DNA from: an uncultured Candidatus Rokubacteria bacterium | Lineage (GTDB): Bacteria > Methylomirabilota > Methylomirabilia > Rokubacteriales > DASRDR01 | Assembly: GCA_963805625.1 (NCBI GenBank) | Contig: CAWDVE010000010.1 | Span: 1,696,001 to 1,760,000, forward strand | DNA length: 64,000 nt | Direction: 5' to 3' | Shown here: in pieces, positions 961 through 11,421 of the stretch | How the letters are laid out: every line of letters starts with the position of its first letter | How positions within the stretch are numbered: the stretch's first letter is position 1 | Program-made: the position numbers and the translations under genes | The notes under the pieces: generated by a model | Seen by the model: only the letters and a program-made list of their open reading frames with translations | Databases searched by the model: none | Told to the model about the DNA's origin: nothing

Positions 961-2040
961 TCAGGAATGACTCCGTGGGAGCGACAGTGGCCGTTCCTCT
1001 CGCGAAGATCGCATCAGGAGGTGTGCGAACTCCAGGACCCGACGGCCTTCCCTTCCGGTAAGGACCGGACGGGGCTCCTTGCCGTGAAGGAACTGCAGGA
1101 AGTGCTGCGTGGATAGCCGGAAGCTCACGCCCCAGTCGGTCTCGAGGTTGTGGAAGGCACGCACCTCGCCGTCGGCATAGAGCGTGAGGACTGGCTCGTC
1201 GAGCAGACGGTCGCTGCACCGGGTGACCGTGATGAGGCCCGACTCCCCCTGGATCTCGAACTGCTCGTGTCCGGGGTAGTAGTCGGTCCGGATGCGCATC
1301 CCCGGCGCGGCGGAGATGTCCCAGATCCCGTGAACGGGCGGATCCCAATGGCGCCATGTCAGCGAGGCCGGGGCGTCCACGACGCTGCCGTTCGGGAGTG
1401 TCGTCTCCTCGATGCGGGCGAAGACGTCCCGAACGTCCCCGAACAGCCAACATGCCACGGCGAGCAGGTGGTGGCCGTGGTCGAACAACAGCGGACCCCC
1501 GAGCCCCGCGCGTCCGAGAACCTGTCTCCACGCCGTTGTCTCAACCGGCACGGGCCAGGCGTACTGCCGGTCCCCGGACACGATCTTCATGCGAAAGTGC
1601 AAGGGTCGGCCGATCGCTCCTGCATCGAGGAGCGCCTTGGCCCGGACCAGAGGCGCGTAGAAGATGAAGTTCTCGAAGCACTTGAGATGGCGGCCCGTCT
1701 CCCTCGCCGTGGCGAGCATGGTGTCGGCCTCCGCCACCGTCATCGCCATCGGCTTCTGCACGCTAACGTGGGCGCCCGCTCGCATGGCGGCCACCGCCAT
1801 CTCGGCGTGGAGGGGGTGTGGCGTCAGGACGTCGACGAGGTCCGGCTCGAGGTGCAGGAGCTCGTCGAAGCCCTGCACGAGCCGCGCCTCTGGGAAGAGC
1901 GCGGCCCGCCGGTCGAGCAGATCCTGGCGGCTATCGCAGAGTGCCACCACCACCGCGTCCGGGTTGTCGCGGTAGCCGAGGCAGTTCAGGTCGAAGATGC
2001 GGCCGAGCCCGACAATGCCGACTCGAATGGGACGGGTCAT
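961..2040 (-). CDS. Gfo/Idh/MocA family oxidoreductase
   Basis: MTRPIRVGIVGLGRI Rossmann start; TPHPLH, HVSVQKPMA and GGPLLFDHGHH motifs. Confidence 0.9.
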   Translation of the reverse strand: MTRPIRVGIVGLGRIFDLNCLGYRDNPDAVVVALCDSRQDLLDRRAALFPEARLVQGFDELLHLEPDLVDVLTPHPLHAEMAVAAMRAGAHVSVQKPMAMTVAEADTMLATARETGRHLKCFENFIFYAPLVRAKALLDAGAIGRPLHFRMKIVSGDRQYAWPVPVETTAWRQVLGRAGLGGPLLFDHGHHLLAVACWLFGDVRDVFARIEETTLPNGSVVDAPASLTWRHWDPPVHGIWDISAAPGMRIRTDYYPGHEQFEIQGESGLITVTRCSDRLLDEPVLTLYADGEVRAFHNLETDWGVSFRLSTQHFLQFLHGKEPRPVLTGREGRRVLEFAHLLMRSSREERPLSLPRSHS

Positions 2041-2333
2041 TGCGAGAGGCTCCCTCCGCGGGCATGGTCGCACCGCCACCCTATCGTACGGCACCAAAGT
2101 GGTGGCCACTGAACATCCCTCGTTGCACCGCAGGAGATGCTGCGGCCTAACCCCCCACCCCAGTCCGGGCAAACCGAATACGCCTGGCCCCGGCGTCCAC
2201 AAGCACGAAACGCGCTGAGCCGGGCGGGATCGCGTCGGGCCGCGGCGAGCCGCGGCGAAAGGACCGACTGGATAGACCTGCCGGCGTGGGAATGCCTTCG
2301 GGCGCACTCCGCCAGCGGCCTCACCTCGGTGCC

Positions 2334-2359: not shown

Positions 2360-2478
2360 TCATGATGTCGCGTCCGCCCCCCTTTCGGGTCGGACGGCCC
2401 CTTCTCGTCAGTGCGGGCTGGTGTCACGTCTCGTTCGGTCTGCCGTGCGACAGCGGCGGGCAGAAAGGCGGCTCGGTC

Positions 2479-3783
2479 ATGATTCGGCGATTGCGCGGGC
2501 GGCGTAGCCGACTCTTCGTGCTTCCTCTGATCCTGCTGGCCGGGGCCGTCGCGTCGGCGATCTGGCAGGGCTCCGGGCCGGTTGCTTGGGCAGCCGATCC
2601 CACGGTGCGGTACATCAGTCATCGCTTCCCGATGCTCGAGTTCTGGGCTAAGAAGATGGGCGAGTATCCCGGGATCAAGTTCGAAGCGGAGCTCATCCCA
2701 TTCGACCAGGCGCTCGAGAAGATGCAGATTCACCTGTCGCAAGGGGCGCCGACGTACGACATCATGGCGACCGACGCCTTCCTGGCGACCTTCGCGGAGC
2801 GCGGCTGGCTCATGCCGCTCGACCCGATGATCGCGAAGTACCGCCAGGCAGTCGAGTGGGACGACATCGACCCGATCCTGGTCCGGGACGTCTGCTCGTA
2901 CAAGGGCAAGGTCTACGGCGTGCCCAACCTCGCCATCTCGATGTTTTTCTTCTATCGGAAGGACCTCCTTGATGCGGCGGGCCTCCGGCCGCCGACGACC
3001 ATGGACGAGTGGATCGCCGCCGCCAAGGCGCTGACCAACCCCGAGAAGAAGCAGTACGGGACGACCCTCACCCTGAAGGCGGGCGACGGCTTCCAGAACG
3101 ACTTCACGTACTTCCTCCGCACCTACGGAGGGGACTGGTACGACAAGGACTGGAAGGTCACGATCGACAGCGAGGCGGGCCTGAAGGCGCTGACGACCAT
3201 GAAGGAGCTGATGAAGTACGCACCGCCCAACGTGCTCGCGTTCCACAACGACGAGTCCACGGTCGCGATGCAGCAGGGCCTGACCGCCATGGGGCTCCTG
3301 TGGCAGTCGCGCGCCCTGGCCATGGACAACGCCCAGGTCTCCCAGGTCGTGGGCAAGGTCCAGTTCGGCGTCCCGCCGGCCGCGACCAAGGGCGGGAAGA
3401 GCCACGCGCGGCTCTCGGTCGGCTGCTACTCGATCAGCGCATACACCAAGAACGATCCCGAGCTCGTCTTCCAGGTGCTCGCCAAGACGCTCAACAAGGC
3501 GAACATGCGGGAAGGGGCCGGGCTGGCCACGCCGACCCGCCTGTCGGTGACGCGGGATCCGGAGGTCACGCAGAAGTTCCGGTTCATCAAGGCGGCGGCC
3601 GACAACGTCCAGGCGGGCGCCCAGCTGGTCCCCAACATCCCCGAGTTCTCCGAGGCCATGGTCCAGACCACCCAGACCCTCCAGAAGGGGCTCACGGGCG
3701 AGCTGACCATCCCGGAGGCGCTCAAGCGCGCCCAGAAGGTGATGGCCGACCTCATGACCGAGAAGGGCTACTACAAGAAGTAA
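2479..3783 (+). CDS. Carbohydrate-type (CUT1) ABC transporter substrate-binding protein
   Basis: Signal peptide; YDIM, GKVYGVP, FFYRKDLL, PPTTMDEW motifs; AAAGG upstream of ATG 2479. Confidence 0.9.
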   Translation: MIRRLRGRRSRLFVLPLILLAGAVASAIWQGSGPVAWAADPTVRYISHRFPMLEFWAKKMGEYPGIKFEAELIPFDQALEKMQIHLSQGAPTYDIMATDAFLATFAERGWLMPLDPMIAKYRQAVEWDDIDPILVRDVCSYKGKVYGVPNLAISMFFFYRKDLLDAAGLRPPTTMDEWIAAAKALTNPEKKQYGTTLTLKAGDGFQNDFTYFLRTYGGDWYDKDWKVTIDSEAGLKALTTMKELMKYAPPNVLAFHNDESTVAMQQGLTAMGLLWQSRALAMDNAQVSQVVGKVQFGVPPAATKGGKSHARLSVGCYSISAYTKNDPELVFQVLAKTLNKANMREGAGLATPTRLSVTRDPEVTQKFRFIKAAADNVQAGAQLVPNIPEFSEAMVQTTQTLQKGLTGELTIPEALKRAQKVMADLMTEKGYYKK

Positions 3784-3798
3784 CGCCGTCCCATTGAA

Positions 3799-3839
3799 GC
3801 GGCCGGGCGGATCGTCTGTGGGTTTGACCGCCCGGTCGC
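3799..3839 (+). other. Intercistronic stem-loop after the SBP gene
   Basis: gcggccgggcgg / ccgcccggtcgc inverted repeat. Confidence 0.5.
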
Positions 3840-3942
3840 TCGCCTCGCACGCATCGATCCCCGCTCCGATGCAGCTCGCCCCGCCCCCCGTCACGGGACG
3901 TTCGCCGGGACGCTCGCGCCCCGCCGCGCGCTGGCCGCGACG

Positions 3943-4818
3943 ATGAGCCGGCAGCAGCGCCGCGACCGCCTGATCTTCCTCGTTCCGAGCATGACCGTCC
4001 TGACGGTCATCCTCTTCTATCCGCTCGTCTACAGCGTTGGGCTGAGCTTCTACAACTACTACCTGCCGGTGCCCCGGAAAACCTTCGTCGGCCTCGACAA
4101 CTTCCGGTACATCTGGGGCGACGACGCGTTCTGGGACGCGCTCGGCGTGACCGCGCGGTTCACCGCCGCCGCCGTCGCCATCGAGCTGGTCGCGGGCGTC
4201 GCCGTCGCCCTGCTCCTCGACGCCCGCATCCCGTGCCGGCGCTTCGTCAGCACCGTGGTGCTCCTGCCGATGACCATCACCCCGGCGGTCGCCGGGCTCC
4301 TCATGCGCTGGATGTTCGAGAGTAACTGGGGGATGGTGAACTACTTCCTCTCGCTCGTCGGCGTGCGAGGACCGGGGTGGACCGGGGACCCCGCCTGGGC
4401 GCTCTGGTCGATCATCCTCGCGGACGTGTGGCAGAACACGCCGTTCGTCATCCTGGTGGTCTACGCCGGCCTCCAGAGCGTTCCCGAGGAGCCGCTCGAG
4501 GCGGCGATGGTGGACGGGGCGACCCGGACGCAGACTCTCACCCACGTCATCTTTCCCTTCCTGCGCCCGCTCGTGCTCTTCGTGCTGATCATCCGCTCGA
4601 TGGACGCCTTCCGCATCTTCGACCAGGTGTTCGTGATGACGGGCGGCGGGCCGGGCACGACGACCCAGACCATCACGTTCTACAACTACGTGATGGCCTT
4701 CCGCATGCTGCGGATGGGACGTGCCTCCGCCCTGGGCGTGGTCACGCTCCTCATCCTGTCGGTGGTCATCGGGTTCTGGATCTACCTCCTGTACCGGCGA
4801 GAGAAAGGCGAGTGGTGA
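3943..4818 (+). CDS. Carbohydrate ABC transporter permease (MalF/UgpA-like)
   Basis: FVGLDNF; EAA motif EAAMVDGA; MTGGGPG. Confidence 0.92.
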   Translation: MSRQQRRDRLIFLVPSMTVLTVILFYPLVYSVGLSFYNYYLPVPRKTFVGLDNFRYIWGDDAFWDALGVTARFTAAAVAIELVAGVAVALLLDARIPCRRFVSTVVLLPMTITPAVAGLLMRWMFESNWGMVNYFLSLVGVRGPGWTGDPAWALWSIILADVWQNTPFVILVVYAGLQSVPEEPLEAAMVDGATRTQTLTHVIFPFLRPLVLFVLIIRSMDAFRIFDQVFVMTGGGPGTTTQTITFYNYVMAFRMLRMGRASALGVVTLLILSVVIGFWIYLLYRREKGEW

Positions 4819-5660
4819 GTCGCCGGCGCCGGGTCGGACCCCGCGTGATGGTCGCCCAGGCCCTGCTCTACCTAGCGCTCCTGGCCGTGGTCGCGGTCTC
4901 CCTGTTCCCGATCTACTTCGCGCTCACGACGTCGCTCAAGGTCACCCGGGAGGCTTTCACCATCCCGCCGACGTGGGTCTTCACGCCGACGCTCGAGCAC
5001 CACCGCTACATCTGGCTGGAGACGCCGTTCCCACGGTACCTCGTCAACACGCTCATCATCACGACGGGAGCGGTGCTGCTCTCGATCCCGCTCGGTTGCA
5101 TGGCGGCGTACTATCTGGCTCGCTACCGAAGCCGGCCGATCCAGGCGCTCCTCTTCACGCTCCTGGCGGTCCGGGCCTTCCCGCGCATCCTCCTGCTGGT
5201 CCCGTTCTTCCTCCTTGCCCGCGCCGCGGAGCTCTACGACACGCACATCCTCATCATCCTGATCATCGTGGCCTTCAACCAGCCGTTCGCGATCTGGCTG
5301 ATGCGCGGGTTCTTCCTGGACGTGCCGCGGGAGCTCCCTGAGGCGGCGATGATCGACGGCTGCAGTTCGCTCGGGGCCTTCGTGCGGGTGGTGCTGCCGG
5401 TGGTGCGCCCCGGCGTGTTCACCGCGGCGCTCTTCACCTTCCTCTTCGCCTACAACGAGTTCCTCTACTGCCTGATCCTCACCGGGAACCAGGCCAAGCC
5501 GCTCTCGGTGGCCATCGCCCAGTACGGAGCCGAGAAGATCGAGTATTGGTCCTGGTCCGCCGCCGGGGCCGTGGGCATCCTCGCCCCGATCGTGCTCTTC
5601 ATCGGGGTGATGCAGCGCCACCTGATCAAGGGCCTGACGTTCGGGACCCTGAAGGGGTAA
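4815..5660 (+). CDS. Carbohydrate ABC transporter permease (MalG/UgpE-like)
   Basis: GTG start overlaps upstream TGA; EAAMIDGCS; C-terminal QRHLIKGLTFGTLKG. Confidence 0.92.
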   Translation: MSRRRRVGPRVMVAQALLYLALLAVVAVSLFPIYFALTTSLKVTREAFTIPPTWVFTPTLEHHRYIWLETPFPRYLVNTLIITTGAVLLSIPLGCMAAYYLARYRSRPIQALLFTLLAVRAFPRILLLVPFFLLARAAELYDTHILIILIIVAFNQPFAIWLMRGFFLDVPRELPEAAMIDGCSSLGAFVRVVLPVVRPGVFTAALFTFLFAYNEFLYCLILTGNQAKPLSVAIAQYGAEKIEYWSWSAAGAVGILAPIVLFIGVMQRHLIKGLTFGTLKG

Positions 5661-5745: not shown

Positions 5746-6111
5746 TCACCCGGCGGTCGGGGACCCTAGGCCAATGAACCAGCCGACGATGGCCCCGTGC
5801 GCTAGATGGGCCGCGACCGTGACAACCGGCGTGCTGGCGCCGTAATTCAGCAGCATGAAACCAGGAGGCTCGAGTAGCGCTCGTTGATGGGACGCGTCGA
5901 AGCGCGTCCCCATCCGAGGGTGTACGGCAGGCAGCAGGATATTCACGAGAGCCGTCCCGGCGAACAGCGCGTGGACGAGACCGAACAGCAACCCGAGCTG
6001 CCAGCTTGCCCGGCCCATCGCCAGGAACACGAGCCAGCACAGAGTGGCGAACAGCAACCCGAACACGAAGTGGACGCCGTAGCCAAGGGCGATGGCGTGG
6101 GCGCGGTTCAC
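5746..6111 (-). CDS. Membrane protein, probably N-terminally truncated
   Basis: Hydrophobic helices with LLPAVHPRMG..LEPPGFMLLNYG motif; no clear RBS. Confidence 0.55.
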   Translation of the reverse strand: MNRAHAIALGYGVHFVFGLLFATLCWLVFLAMGRASWQLGLLFGLVHALFAGTALVNILLPAVHPRMGTRFDASHQRALLEPPGFMLLNYGASTPVVTVAAHLAHGAIVGWFIGLGSPTAG

Positions 6112-6132: not shown

Positions 6133-7434
6133 TCAGTAGTCCACGCAGGTCAGGCGGGAGAACCCCCAGACGTCGTTCAGATGGCTGGTGCCGTACCGGC
6201 CGAGGGGCGGCGGCTGCGCGGCATACCACGCGGGCGCGATCGGGCCAGCGGCGATGACGCGCTCGACGGGCGGGAAGGGGCCCGGCGCGCTGCCGTCGCC
6301 GGTGCTGACGATGCCCACGCCCTCCGGCGCCGTCACCAGCAGCGGCGGCGCCGCGCCGTCCTCGTCGTCCTCCTCCTCGGTGATCAGGACCGTCTTGACG
6401 CCGGCCTCGTCGAGGGCCCGGACGACCGCCATCGTGTCGAGCATCCGCTGCCCGCGGAGGGTCGGTGTGACGATGGCCCCCGTCGCCCCGAGCGTGGTCG
6501 CCATCAGCGCCGCGCGGTTCGCCATCAGCTCCTTCTGGCGCTGCTCCTCCCACATCGTCCGCACCATGATGCAGCCGAGGAAGTTGAAGTCGACGCCGTG
6601 ACGGCGGCACATGTGGAGCACGATGCTGTTCGTGAGCGGCCAGGTGAACCACCGGTAGAAGTCCCCGCTGAAGAAGCTCCCGCAGACCGCCCCGTCGAGG
6701 ACCTCCGTCGGGTGGAGGAGCCACGGCTGGGTGAGCCGCGTGATGCCGTAGACCGCGGTGGAGAGCGTCGAGTCGGGGCTCAGGTAGATGGGCTCGGGCG
6801 ACACGACGCTGTGGACGTAGACGAAGCCTGGCAGGCCCGGCCGCGGAGTCAGGTCCAGCACCTCGACGTCGACCGGGGTCTCGCCGAGCGTCGCGGCGGC
6901 GAGCCGGTCCTGGACGGCCAGCGTTGCCTGCTGGATGATGCGATTGGCCGGGTCGGGCGCGAGGTCGGGATCCGGCTCGATCAGGAGACAGAGGTTGACA
7001 GTGGCGGCCCAGGGGCTGATCGCGCCCGGGCCCGACATGTCGAGGAAGTCGCCGTACGCGGTGCCGGGGCGAAAGGAGGAAAGGAGACCGTAGCGCCGCA
7101 CGTCCTGGGGCGGCGTGCAGGGCATCAGCGTGAAGCCGGCAAGCCGGTTGGTCCGACCCGTCCCCACGGTCTCCACTGCGCGGCCCACGATGCCGGGGTA
7201 GGCGACGCCCTTCCCAGCCGCCTTCACCCGCGGCTCGATGATGTCTTGGATAGTCACGATGCGCGCCGACTCGCCCGGGCGGACGACCTCGAGCGCCGCG
7301 CGTGCGACCAGCGGGTCCCGGCGCACGAGGCCCAGGATCTCCTCCCGATCGATCTCGAGCACCCGGTCCCGCCACTGGGTCGTGGCGCCGAAGCGGACGT
7401 CCTCGACGGGGTAGGCGGCGAGCTCAAGACGCAC
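6133..7434 (-). CDS. grdE: Glycine/sarcosine/betaine reductase component B proprotein-family subunit (GrdE/GrdG/GrdI-like), divergent
   Basis: MRLEL..V.DVRFG; PGESARIV.I.DIIEPRVK; VGTGRTNRL.G; FLDMSGPGA; LHPTEVLDGA; GVDFNFLG; overlaps grdB stop. Confidence 0.88.
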   Translation of the reverse strand: MRLELAAYPVEDVRFGATTQWRDRVLEIDREEILGLVRRDPLVARAALEVVRPGESARIVTIQDIIEPRVKAAGKGVAYPGIVGRAVETVGTGRTNRLAGFTLMPCTPPQDVRRYGLLSSFRPGTAYGDFLDMSGPGAISPWAATVNLCLLIEPDPDLAPDPANRIIQQATLAVQDRLAAATLGETPVDVEVLDLTPRPGLPGFVYVHSVVSPEPIYLSPDSTLSTAVYGITRLTQPWLLHPTEVLDGAVCGSFFSGDFYRWFTWPLTNSIVLHMCRRHGVDFNFLGCIMVRTMWEEQRQKELMANRAALMATTLGATGAIVTPTLRGQRMLDTMAVVRALDEAGVKTVLITEEEDDEDGAAPPLLVTAPEGVGIVSTGDGSAPGPFPPVERVIAAGPIAPAWYAAQPPPLGRYGTSHLNDVWGFSRLTCVDY

Positions 7435-8770
7435 TGACGCGCTCCGGGGCCGCGGCCGGGGGGTCGAAGAGCGTGGGCTCGGTGACGGGTGTCTGGAGCG
7501 CCGAGAGCGCGGCCAAGACGATCCGGCGACTCAGGTCCCGATCCGCCTCCTCCGGCAGCTTCGGGTCACCGCAGGGGTGCTGTACTTGAACGCCGCGCAC
7601 GACCCGGTTCGCGTTGGCGGCCAGCGCGATGGCCGGGAGAGCCCCGATCAGGGCCGTGGGGATGCCGACTCGCTCGAGCTCCTTCGCTATCGTTGCGCCG
7701 CAACGATGGCAGCTCCCTCACCCAGACACCTGGAGCGCCGCCGCGACCCCGGCGTCCCGGAACTCCTCGGCGACGCGCCGGCCGATCGCCCGCGCAGGGC
7801 CGACGGCGGTCTGGTTGCCGACCGTGCTGTAGATCCACGGATAGATGCCCCCGATCGCGCCCTCGGCCTCGAGGGCGCGGAGCGTCCCCAGCGGGAGCGC
7901 GTAGTCGGGGCTCCGCGTGTTCAGGATCTTCGTGTTGAAGCCGCCGTGCGCCGACTCCCACCGGGTGACGTCGAGCGAGCCGAGCCCGTCGATCGAGTAG
8001 CGCCCGGCCGCGAGCGCACGGGCGCCAGGCAGATGATCCGGGTTGCCGCGCGGGACGATCCCCGTGCTGACGACGATCCCGATGGTGGCGCGCGCGAGGT
8101 CCGCCACCGGCGGGGCCGGAGTTACGCGGTCGTATTGCTGCACCTGGATCTCCGAGGCGACAGGCCGGCCGGCGACCTGAGCGAGGAGCATGTCCACGGC
8201 GCGCTCGTATCCCACCTTATCCTTCATGACGAGCCGCCGGATCCCGCGCGGGATGTAGCCCTCTTCCGCGGCGGATCCGAGCGCCTCCCCGCGGGCGAGC
8301 CGGAGGCCGAGGCCGACCATCCGGGCAAGGATCGGCTTCATTTCCGACGCGTCGAGACCCGTGGGTACAGCCAGGAGCTCCCGCCGGTGGGTGATGATGG
8401 CCGCGTTGTCCGGATACATACCCGTGACGGCGGGGATGCCGAGCGACTGGGCAACCCGGCAGGTCAGGGCGCAGCCGAGACCGTAGCGGCCGGAATCGAA
8501 CGCAGGACCGGCCAGCACGAGATCCGGGCGGTGGCGTCCTAACGCCTCGCGGATGGCCGCCCCCGCCTCGTCTTCGCGCTCCGCGACGTAGTCGTCGCCG
8601 CAGATGAGCGTGGCCACGACCGTGCCCTGCTCTCCCAGGATCTGCTGGAGTGCGCGCCCCGGCCCGACGGGCCCCTCCCGTACCTCCAGCGGTGCGTGGG
8701 CCTTCTCCTCGCCCCCGATCCCGCCGAAGAACTGGTTCACGTAATGCACGATGCGAGCTGGCTGTCCCAC
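7424..8770 (-). CDS. grdB: Reductase selenoprotein B (GrdB-like), 448 aa, Sec at in-frame UGA 7718-7720 (codon 351)
   Basis: IVHYVNQFFGGIGGEEKA and AGPAFDSGRYG; reading through TGA gives VSG-U-GSCHRCGATIAKELERVGIP..ANRVV..QHPCGDP, ending at TGA 7424-7426; RBS AAGGAGG. Confidence 0.95.
7689..7707 (-). promoter_or_regulatory. Putative SECIS hairpin of grdB
   Basis: AUCGUUGC-GGC-GCAACGAU, perfect 8-bp stem; loop starts 18 nt after the UGA with G first. Confidence 0.7.
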
Positions 8771-8807: not shown

Positions 8808-9290
8808 CTACCCGGCGCTGTCGGGGCTCGCCTGCGCGTTCCGGACCTCGCGCACGGCGGCGACGATCTCGTCGGGATCCTCCAGCGCCAACTCGGTCAT
8901 GCCGACTTCGGCCTGATAGACCTGCTCGTCGACCTGGGCCTTGACCTCCGGTTCGATGACGTGGAAGACCGGCAGGCCGAGGGCTTCACCCGCAAGCGGC
9001 CCCGCCCACGTGGGATCGCCTTCCGTGACGGTGAGTGCGTACAGCCGGCTGCTGGCCGGCGTCGGGGTGCCCAGAAGGACGACCAGGTTTGTGGTCCCCA
9101 GGCGCTGGACCGTCTGCTTGATCGCCTCTTGGCCCTCCAGGCCAAGCGCCCCCGCGGCCGTTCAGACGAAGCAATGCGTCTGCTCGAGGACGACCTCCGC
9201 TCCCGCACTCCGGGCGCACTTGGCGATCGATGTCCCCGGCACGCCGTCCCGCTCACCCACCACGATGACTCGCTTGCCCCTCAACTCCAC
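8808..9290 (-). CDS. grdA: Reductase selenoprotein A (GrdA-like), 160 aa, Sec43 at UGA 9162-9164; absent from ORF track
   Basis: Manual translation: MELRGKRVIVVGERDGVPGTSIAKCARSAGAEVVLEQTHCFV-U-TAAGALGLEGQEAIK..LVVLLGTP..TVTEGDPTWAGPLAGEALGLPVFHVIEPEVK..YQAEVGM..SAG*. Confidence 0.95.
9128..9146 (-). promoter_or_regulatory. Putative SECIS hairpin of grdA
   Basis: CUUGGCC-UGGAG-GGCCAAG, perfect 7-bp stem; loop starts 22 nt after the UGA. Confidence 0.7.
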
Positions 9291-9337: not shown

Positions 9338-10774
9338 TCACGCCCCGGGGTTCCGCTCCAGGACGACCGACACCCCATCCGACAGCTGAGTCATGCGTCC
9401 GAGGAACAGGCTGCCCTTGGCGAGAAGCATGACCCGCTGCATCGTACCATCGCGCAGACAGTCGAGGCCACGAGCGAGGTACGGGATCGCGGAGGCGATG
9501 TGTCCCTGCGTGGGCGAGAAGCCGGGGAGCCCGTGGCGGGTCACGAACGCTGGCATGTCCGCCCGCGTGATCTCGCCGGCGGCGACCGCCAGGGCCGCTA
9601 GGAGCTGGTAGTTCCTGCGGGCCACGTCGCCGCTTCCCGCCGGCTCCGTGAGCTCGGGATTCTGGAGCTCGGTCGCGTACTTGTCGACCTCGCGGAGGCC
9701 AAGACCGAGGCGCGCGAGAGGCTGCGCCACCAGCCGCTCGAGGATGGCCTGCTGGGACGACCCGGCCCCGACCGGATGGCGGCCAACTGCGTCGAGGCGC
9801 AGGAGCGGGCTCGCGCTGTCGTCGGGCTCGACGACGGTGGCCACGGCGGCCAGCGTGTCCTCGAGGATGGGCTGCTCATGCTGGAGGTGGCCCTGAAACT
9901 TCATCCCGAGCTTCGCGAGGGAGCCGCCACCGACCACCGCGACGCGCGGGAAGACGCCAGCCGCGACGAGGGCGCCAGCCATGATCAGGGCGTGGACGGG
10001 CCCGCAGCAGAACGCCTTGACATCCGCGCCAGTGGCCTCCACGAGCCCGCAGCTTTCAGCGATGGCCTTCGCCAGATTCCCACCGCCTCGCTGGTAGCGC
10101 TCCCCGACAGCCTCCTCGCCGCAGTTGAGAACGTAAGGGATCGTCTCCGGGTCGTACGCGCCGTCGCGAAGCACCGCCCGGAGCGCCATCACGGCCGTGG
10201 CCTTGCAAGCGAGATTCTCCAGGACGACATCGGCCGTGAGCGTCGCGTCCGCATCATGGCCACGGCTCACACAGCCGACCAGTCGGCCGTCGCCGAGTCG
10301 CAGTGGAAGTGCCACACCAGGACTCGACAGCCGATCTTCGATGACACTCGCGGGATGACCGTCGCCGAGTCGCTCGAGATCTGCCTTCCCGAGGAGCGGG
10401 TGATCCGACAGCGCTCGCCGCACCTCGCGCGTGAACGTCGCGTCCAGCCCGACAAGCTCGAAAGCGTCCACGATCCGGAGGAGTCCGTAAAGCTCTGCCT
10501 CGGGCATCAGTTCGCCGTGTGGCTGCCAGCGCGGCACGGGCTCGCTGGCCAGAAACCAGGGGCGCTGCCTTTCGCGTAGTGTGTCCGGGTCGAGCGATCC
10601 CAAAAACGCCTGGTGCGGCGGGTAGGCCAGGGCGTGCTCGTAGGGCCGCAAGTGAGTCGCTAGCCGTTCGGCCAGGCTGGGCGTGGTCGCCAGCTCCCGG
10701 GCAGGCTTGGACCCATGCTGGACAAGTCCCGGGACGTGGGCCAGGAAATTGCGGGCAATTCGGACCACCGGCAT
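9338..10774 (-). CDS. grdC: Reductase component C subunit beta (GrdC, FabH-like)
   Basis: AYPPHQAFLG; ENLACKATAV; EEAVGERYQRGGGNLAKAIAE; DVKAFCCGP; AKLGMK; PGFSPTQGHIAS; KGSLFLGRMTQLSDGVS. Confidence 0.93.
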   Translation of the reverse strand: MPVVRIARNFLAHVPGLVQHGSKPARELATTPSLAERLATHLRPYEHALAYPPHQAFLGSLDPDTLRERQRPWFLASEPVPRWQPHGELMPEAELYGLLRIVDAFELVGLDATFTREVRRALSDHPLLGKADLERLGDGHPASVIEDRLSSPGVALPLRLGDGRLVGCVSRGHDADATLTADVVLENLACKATAVMALRAVLRDGAYDPETIPYVLNCGEEAVGERYQRGGGNLAKAIAESCGLVEATGADVKAFCCGPVHALIMAGALVAAGVFPRVAVVGGGSLAKLGMKFQGHLQHEQPILEDTLAAVATVVEPDDSASPLLRLDAVGRHPVGAGSSQQAILERLVAQPLARLGLGLREVDKYATELQNPELTEPAGSGDVARRNYQLLAALAVAAGEITRADMPAFVTRHGLPGFSPTQGHIASAIPYLARGLDCLRDGTMQRVMLLAKGSLFLGRMTQLSDGVSVVLERNPGA

Positions 10775-11421
10775 CCGTCCCGCACCCATCGTCACGTGCC
10801 CTCACCCCGGGCGGGAAATCTCTCCCACCCGCCGCGACAGGGTATCACGCGGCTTTGTCAGTCAGCGAAAGCAAGATCACCGGACGCTGGCACAGATCTG
10901 TCGACGTGGAAGGACTTTGCCGGGCCGGATGACCGGATTCTCGCGGCGGAATGAGGACGCCACAGCAAGCCAATGCGCGGCTCGTCCAAGCTCGTCACCC
11001 GCATCGCGACCGCCCGGATCTGAACGCCAGACCGGAGGGCCAATGTCGGAGGATGGAGAGCACCCTGACACCGCCCGCGCCGGCCGCGCACCGTCGAAGT
11101 CGAGTGAGTCAGGGCGGTCTCTGTCTGCCTACCCTCCCGGAGAGGGCGAAACGGGGCCTTACGCCGACAACCCCCGGCCCCGAGAACATGGTACAGTCAC
11201 CGCGCCTTCCATCAGGCTGTGTGGTTGACGCACTCCGGCGTCCAGCCTCCTGGCATCTGGCTTGTCTCCCCAAGGTCGACAACCAGGGAGATCTCCCAAT
11301 GCCAGACCAAAGCATCCTCAGGGGAAAGCCGCCCACGCAGCGATCCAGGCAGGGAAGCTTCCGGCCCGGTCGGCACGATGACCTTGCAAACTGAGACCCT
11401 ATCCAGGAAGGAGCTCACACG

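Follow-up and report, generated by a model that had tools for sequence, protein, structure and literature searches.

A hidden selenoprotein A gene in a glycine reductase-like operon without detectable grdD in an uncultured Rokubacteria genome

The window (the whole stretch of DNA analysed here, 64,000 nucleotides from an uncultured Candidatus Rokubacteria bacterium) contains a gene for a selenocysteine (Sec)-containing GrdA, and the system encoded around it is a variant that fails three tests of a canonical glycine reductase: GrdC accompanied by GrdD, a pyruvoyl-forming GrdE and a GrdB above the equivalog cut-off. UGA-recoded GrdA is textbook knowledge and the hidden codon itself is ordinary; the missing grdD, the pyruvoyl-less GrdE and a second Sec codon in grdB make the locus unusual. 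The substrate is likely not glycine, and the two-carbon product likely leaves the system by a different route. The genes stand in the order grdC-grdA-grdB-grdE, each in a single copy in the genome, and the features are as follows.

9338..10795, minus strand: grdC, beta subunit of protein C in a short form that lacks the C-terminal helix (likely start ATG 10774; FabH-type cysteine 10009-10007)
8808..9290, minus strand: grdA, selenoprotein A, 160 aa, C40xxU43 (from the frame, profile matches and the conserved TGA)
9162..9164, minus strand: in-frame TGA read as Sec43 (from conservation in relatives and short-read contigs)
9128..9146, minus strand: candidate grdA SECIS, 8-bp stem, GGA loop 23 nt 3' of the UGA (fits the bSECIS model; statistically weak)
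7424..8770, minus strand: grdB-type selenoprotein B of 448 aa, with TGA 7720-7718 read as Sec (SG-U-GSCHRCG; from the frame and profile scores)
7689..7707, minus strand: grdB SECIS hairpin, 8-bp stem, GGC loop 18 nt 3' of the UGA (from pairing and covariation)
6133..7434, minus strand: grdE-like subunit of protein B that lacks the pyruvoyl-forming cysteines (from profile and alignment)
2362..5660, plus strand: sugar-type ABC transporter (binding protein, two permeases) accompanying this GrdB/E type (from profiles and relative loci)
961..2307, minus strand: Gfo/Idh/MocA oxidoreductase, found with this module in 4 of 11 loci (from profiles and relative loci)

The original prediction, that a GrdA-family selenoprotein gene with a CxxU motif lies hidden here and escapes plain ORF calling, agrees with what we found. 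Read through from GTG 9290 to TAG 8808, the frame comprises 160 codons with TGA 9164-9162 (HCFV-U-TAAGA) as the single internal stop; it contains C40-F-V-U43 and both of the GrdA signatures that had been claimed, GERDGVPG and GDPTWAGPLAG, and, as had been stated, no ORF of at least 80 aa is listed in it. GGAGG is located just 5' of the GTG. The read-through product covers positions 1-147 of the 147 in PF04723 (E 1e-54) and scores 187.8 bits with NF040748 (cut-off 130). The piece before the TGA alone matches PF04723 positions 1-40 (3e-13), and the downstream half aligns to GrdA as well, the piece after the TGA alone matching positions 42-147 (2e-33). No clear solved relative of GrdA was found by sequence, and none by fold at E 0.001 (model pLDDT 91).

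The TGA was present in all 20 genomes with a grdA match (own genome included) out of 61 related genomes searched, in each case at the CxxU position, with identity from 48 to 94%. At the place of Sec43, none of 25 full-length database homologues had Cys, while 23 had W and two had G, which we read as the result of gene callers using other codes; in the accessible text of a 2006 survey the Cys form of GrdA is likewise given as not known (PMC1794560). Contigs from the runs X1 (1023 bases; possibly the source sample) and X5 (498 bases) span the codon unchanged, with neither TGC nor TGT; an X2 contig, whose differences are listed only in part, also spans it. The RNA run X18 yielded short contig pieces only, none of them over grdA among the matches listed. 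A divergent Desulfobacterota GrdA subtype was observed in L102, L103 and L105, where GDGQEI replaces GERDGV and CxxU is kept.

These observations argue against grdA being a pseudogene and the TGA a genuine stop or an error, a reading that could draw on the frame break in selB of the same assembly. The genome carries tRNA-Sec (selC), selA, selB and selD, and selB is interrupted in a C/G run where one base is missing (G000:C21 about 224981; L005:1485). Since three short-read assemblies (X1, X2 and X3) have one more G at this point, the break is an assembly slip; selB is also intact in 5/5 relatives, and broken Sec machinery is thereby ruled out. With the same-codon TGA in the relatives, the agreement of the short-read contigs and the lack of Cys homologues, we consider a pseudogene extremely improbable and a real Sec-containing GrdA practically certain. 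Its role as carboxymethyl carrier and the C40/U43 redox pair are likely by analogy with the family, for which the carboxymethyl-selenoether and the CxxU pair are described in the accessible part of PMC13188914.

Three other in-frame TGA codons were seen elsewhere in the genome: in selD (G000:C10:162221-163141, plus strand; GAG-U-ACK), where a GGA-loop hairpin resembles the one in grdA; in a second GrdB/PrdB-like gene (G000:C17 about 530780-531500, plus strand; VPT-U-PVC), likely a hidden selenoprotein; and in an acyl-CoA synthetase-like match (G000:C10:1263243-1264817, plus strand).

In grdA, grdB and selD the UGA is followed by an 8-bp hairpin with a GG-led triloop at a distance of 18-23 nt, a geometry that fits the bSECIS model (stem of 4-16 bp, G-led loop 16-37 nt after the UGA, as given in the sections of PMC13188914 at hand). 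The grdB hairpin is paired in 96% of cells and its covariation score was reached in 0/500 shuffles (22 distinct rows; related rows inflate the test), whereas the grdA hairpin is paired in 70% and its score was reached in 11/500 shuffles, with the same inflation by related rows. The stability of the hairpins was equalled by 90/2000 synonymous recodings for grdB, 29/2000 for selD and 217/2000 for grdA, the last not significant alone; 2/60 control windows reached p 0.05 in this test. Folding of the whole region after each UGA was no stabler than in shuffles (z from -0.2 to -0.9; grdA z -0.89), and an Rfam scan of the window gave 0 matches.

The second Sec codon of the operon, TGA 7720-7718 hidden in grdB, was absent from the original prediction. 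GrdB exceeds the cut-off of the selenoprotein B subfamily TIGR01918 (398 vs 65 bits) with UxxC, but stays under the equivalog cut-offs for glycine (373 vs 602), sarcosine (417 vs 800) and betaine GrdH (350 vs 775 bits), and it has SGUG where canonical B has STUG. In the PDB, GrdB gave a single row, a chance match. The NCVSAC motif found in L077, L079 and L071 is missing from GrdE of the window. In the accessible text on C. difficile, the pyruvoyl of GrdE is cysteine-derived (PMC9908766), and FarE and GrdI likewise have no pyruvoyl cysteines in what is available of PMC10838667. Because no pyruvoyl can form on this GrdE, the substrate is quite probably not glycine.

GrdE-like genes were found in 61/251 genomes of the phylum, up to five per genome; an atlas search with GrdE gave PF09338 clusters only. 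The GrdB/E type of the window (81-95% identity) occurs in 11 loci, several of them on contigs that end early: four adjoin grdC-grdA, seven adjoin the same sugar-type ABC transporter, four have the Gfo/Idh/MocA gene and four a Zn-dehydrogenase that is missing from the window. This co-occurrence suggests that the transporter and B/E form a substrate module plugging into a shared A/C core. The best PDB matches of the binding protein are generic sugar binders. No thioredoxin gene was found in the locus; elsewhere the genome has a TrxB homologue (42%) and weak thioredoxin matches.

Several further features of the locus were noted. In the close relatives L030 (9540-10604) and L031 (1556-2620) a Zn-dependent dehydrogenase gene is situated between grdA and grdB, where the window has a spacer of 37 bases. 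A small membrane-type ORF at 5746-6111 (minus strand), between grdE and the ABC permease, has no Pfam match and is uncalled in L030. The promoter and terminator scan gave one site, inside grdC, and no terminator. The non-coding segment 10950-11400, 5' of grdC, has many loose contig ends at 11063-11115 and resembles a repeat or what is left of a mobile element; synteny of the window with L030 ends at 10850.

In all 20 relative loci grdC is located directly or nearly directly 5' of grdA, and the place and type of grdB/E vary. The closest GrdC record is from Candidatus Rokubacteria (94%), followed by Dehalococcoidia, Nitrospinota, Entotheonella and Syntrophobacterales, and the sequencing runs with the locus are soil and sediment metagenomes. 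The loci L064, L065 and L068 have the order grdB-grdE-grdC with no grdA after grdC within the fetched DNA, which in L064 ends 4 kb on.

GrdD was searched for with NF040747, which found it in 3/3 canonical records. In the own genome (99.9% complete, 6.3% contaminated) this search gave a 25-bit fragment only, in a protein next to a fabD-like gene that we take to be PlsX, and tblastn with E. gilvus GrdD gave nothing at E 0.01. The samples, which consist of mostly incomplete genomes so that absence means not found in those searched, gave grdD in 0/251 genomes of the own phylum (grdC in 54), in 0/201 genomes of Chloroflexota, the phylum of G067 (grdC in eight), and in five of 251 genomes of Desulfobacterota, the phylum of G071, where 11 of the 16 genomes with grdC had no grdD. 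None of 16 genomes picked for close GrdC was above the grdD cut-off. We conclude that GrdD is very probably truly absent.

PlsX is the sole GrdD-like match, in 57/61 genomes, and the genome has two acetate kinase genes, so that acetyl phosphate might still be made, with housekeeping PlsX or an unrecognised protein replacing GrdD. The match is confined to roughly profile positions 138-227, with a score near 25 bits, however, and the own-genome protein lacks MGCTGP, which is invariant in 55 GrdD; the GrdC tail (see below) is lost; the 20 loci share no further conserved gene next to grdC-grdA; and the acetate kinase copy examined adjoins a phosphoketolase-like ORF. We therefore regard such a replacement as quite improbable.

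The alignment of 48 GrdC proteins (L035, L044 and L065 with frame breaks, the partial L031, L038 and L041 and two duplicates were left out) showed a C-terminal amphipathic helix of about 30 residues in 8/8 GrdC with grdD and in 0/40 without it; L102 GrdC has an unrelated C-terminal extension. Among 38 cluster representatives with a readable C-terminus (of 150), 22 were short-tailed, a share favoured by the query. Seven GrdC-GrdD fusions were identified among 15 long or odd homologues scanned (P0245, P0249, P0250, P0251, P0297, P0310 and P0368); the residues of P0250 are intermediate between the GrdC classes. In all seven the tail helix of GrdC is missing and the GrdD match begins at profile position 17-24, without the first GrdD helix, and free GrdD starts with a helix similar to the GrdC tail. 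As the fusions drop both helices and GrdD-less GrdC lacks the tail, the GrdC tail helix and the first helix of GrdD likely form a docking pair, judged from sequence, that would be needless after fusion or GrdD loss.

A single branch separates paired from unpaired GrdC (SH-aLRT 99 with 48 rows and 98 with 44 rows), and hence the correlation of tail and GrdD counts as about one event; the tree has no outgroup and does not decide which class is older. The short-tailed P0257, for which the genomic context was not at hand, falls in the paired clade of the 44-row tree.

Seven other GrdC columns split the two classes, for example LGMN/LGMK and RGFC/KAFC. This difference, like the sugar-type ABC transporter and the dehydrogenases that GrdB/E accompanies, would suit a carried group other than carboxymethyl, with divergent GrdB/E and GrdC processing a larger acyl unit (e.g. 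sugar-derived or lactyl) or running toward synthesis. All family motifs are kept in GrdA, however, and a single grdC-grdA core is combined with as many as five GrdE paralogues, and in L071 with a near-canonical protein B, as would fit an intermediate common to all; a larger acyl unit or synthesis is nearly as improbable as the replacement of GrdD. The Syntrophobacterales locus L071 combines a canonical pyruvoyl GrdE and a short GrdC with no grdD, and this pairing suggests the usual carboxymethyl intermediate.

In canonical protein C the thioester cysteine is in GrdD (Cys359). The textbook steps, as given in the accessible parts of PMC10298544 and PMC13188914, lead from the carboxymethyl selenoether to an acetyl thioester on protein C and then to acetyl phosphate. 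By the family mechanism, Sec351 of GrdB would displace the leaving group from an imported substituted acetate, the carboxymethyl group would then move to Sec43 of GrdA, and cleavage of the selenoether by GrdC would leave a C40-U43 selenenylsulfide to be reduced by a thioredoxin encoded elsewhere. Without GrdD, the acetyl group might be held on GrdC's own FabH-type cysteine and passed to CoA, giving acetyl-CoA for carbon use in place of acetyl phosphate. As the genome has no GrdD MGCTGP cysteine, GrdC's own cysteine would be the simplest acceptor. It is invariant in 48/48 GrdC of both classes and aligns with the FabH cysteine; since it is equally invariant in GrdC with GrdD, it does not single out CoA transfer. 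That grdA encodes an intact Sec GrdA acting as carboxymethyl carrier and that GrdC alone cleaves and passes acetyl to CoA is the reading we favour, although we give it slightly less than an even chance; acetyl-CoA as the product is about evenly balanced.

The genome has acetyl-CoA synthetase (Acs, above the cut-off), and its acetate kinase could use acetyl phosphate; no Pta was found in it. Acetate kinase and Acs without Pta do not decide the acetyl fate. The same carrier chemistry, with GrdC alone cleaving the selenoether, might instead end in hydrolysis to free acetate recovered by acetyl-CoA synthetase, supplying carbon or detoxifying with no energy conserved. This would fit the lack of grdD and Pta alongside Acs, and related D-proline reductase is uncoupled from phosphorylation in the accessible text of PMC10298544; yet the thioester would be wasted, and in Syntrophobacterales the short GrdC accompanies a canonical pyruvoyl GrdE (L071), where energy conservation would matter. 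We consider free acetate unlikely and retain transfer to CoA as the preferred reading.

More broadly, we tentatively suggest, at clearly less than an even chance, that protein C has a second and widespread class, in which GrdC stands alone without ever docking GrdD and would convert GrdA-bound carboxymethyl straight to acetyl-CoA. Such a GrdC would allow soil and marine non-clostridia (Rokubacteria, Dehalococcoidia, Nitrospinota, Entotheonella and Syntrophobacterales) to combine a single selenium core with several protein B modules that do without pyruvoyl, breaking down substituted acetates, and the clostridial acetyl-phosphate enzyme would have been derived by tethering a PlsX paralogue via the helix pair or fusion. 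Glycine reductase is described as an anaerobe's enzyme serving acetyl phosphate and ATP; in the soil phylum sampled here, 54 of 251 genomes have kept the selenium core but not the subunit to which acetyl phosphate formation is ascribed. Annotators who infer "glycine reductase" or a reductive glycine route from the presence of grdA/B/C would be misled in such genomes, and GrdD-less GrdC offers a one-subunit system for the long-standing question of C-Se bond breakage by protein C and for the role of the FabH-type cysteine. A full-text search, mainly of literature outside subscription journals, gave no description of the GrdD-less class in the text it covered, and PMC9751293 had no matches for the terms searched.

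Compared with known GrdA (PF04723, NF040748), the product has the same full-length match above the cut-off, CxxU and in-frame UGA with a candidate downstream hairpin, and about 48% identity to Enterococcus gilvus GrdA; the protein shows no notable difference, but its gene directly follows grdC, in the place of grdD in canonical operons. Clostridial glycine/sarcosine reductase consists of GrdA, GrdB/E or F/G, GrdC/D and TrxA/B. Our controls for it (L077 and L079) share with the window the A, B, E and C homologues, two Sec codons and UxxCxxC in B, whereas in the present system grdD is missing from the genome, GrdC is shorter by about 30 aa, E lacks NCVSAC, B has SGUG in place of STUG and the locus contains no trx gene.

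Betaine reductase GrdH/GrdI (control L078) resembles the window system in that both partner subunits lack the pyruvoyl motif, with a loop there that is similar by eye (GSFFSGDFYRWFTW vs GSFMPCSSKWSTY). The identities are 38% and 30%, however, the proteins fall on separate tree branches and B scores 350 against the cut-off of 775; betaine reductase uses GrdD, missing here, and the window locus has no BCCT transporter. The Synergistota fluoroacetate reductase FarB/FarE, as far as the available text of PMC10838667 describes it, also has a pyruvoyl-less protein B feeding a shared GrdA/C core; it differs in that the window E scores 101 against the cut-off of 675 bits, no radical SAM or antiporter gene is present in the window locus, and the window B keeps the CxxC lacking in FarB. 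Finally, the GrdC model (pLDDT 90, pTM 0.93) matches the thiolase-fold enzymes FabH, OleA and HMG-CoA synthase (E about 1e-10) in fold and cysteine position. The identity is 13-20%, the matches are partial, with query-based TM values of 0.32-0.42, and GrdC has a large additional N-terminal portion.
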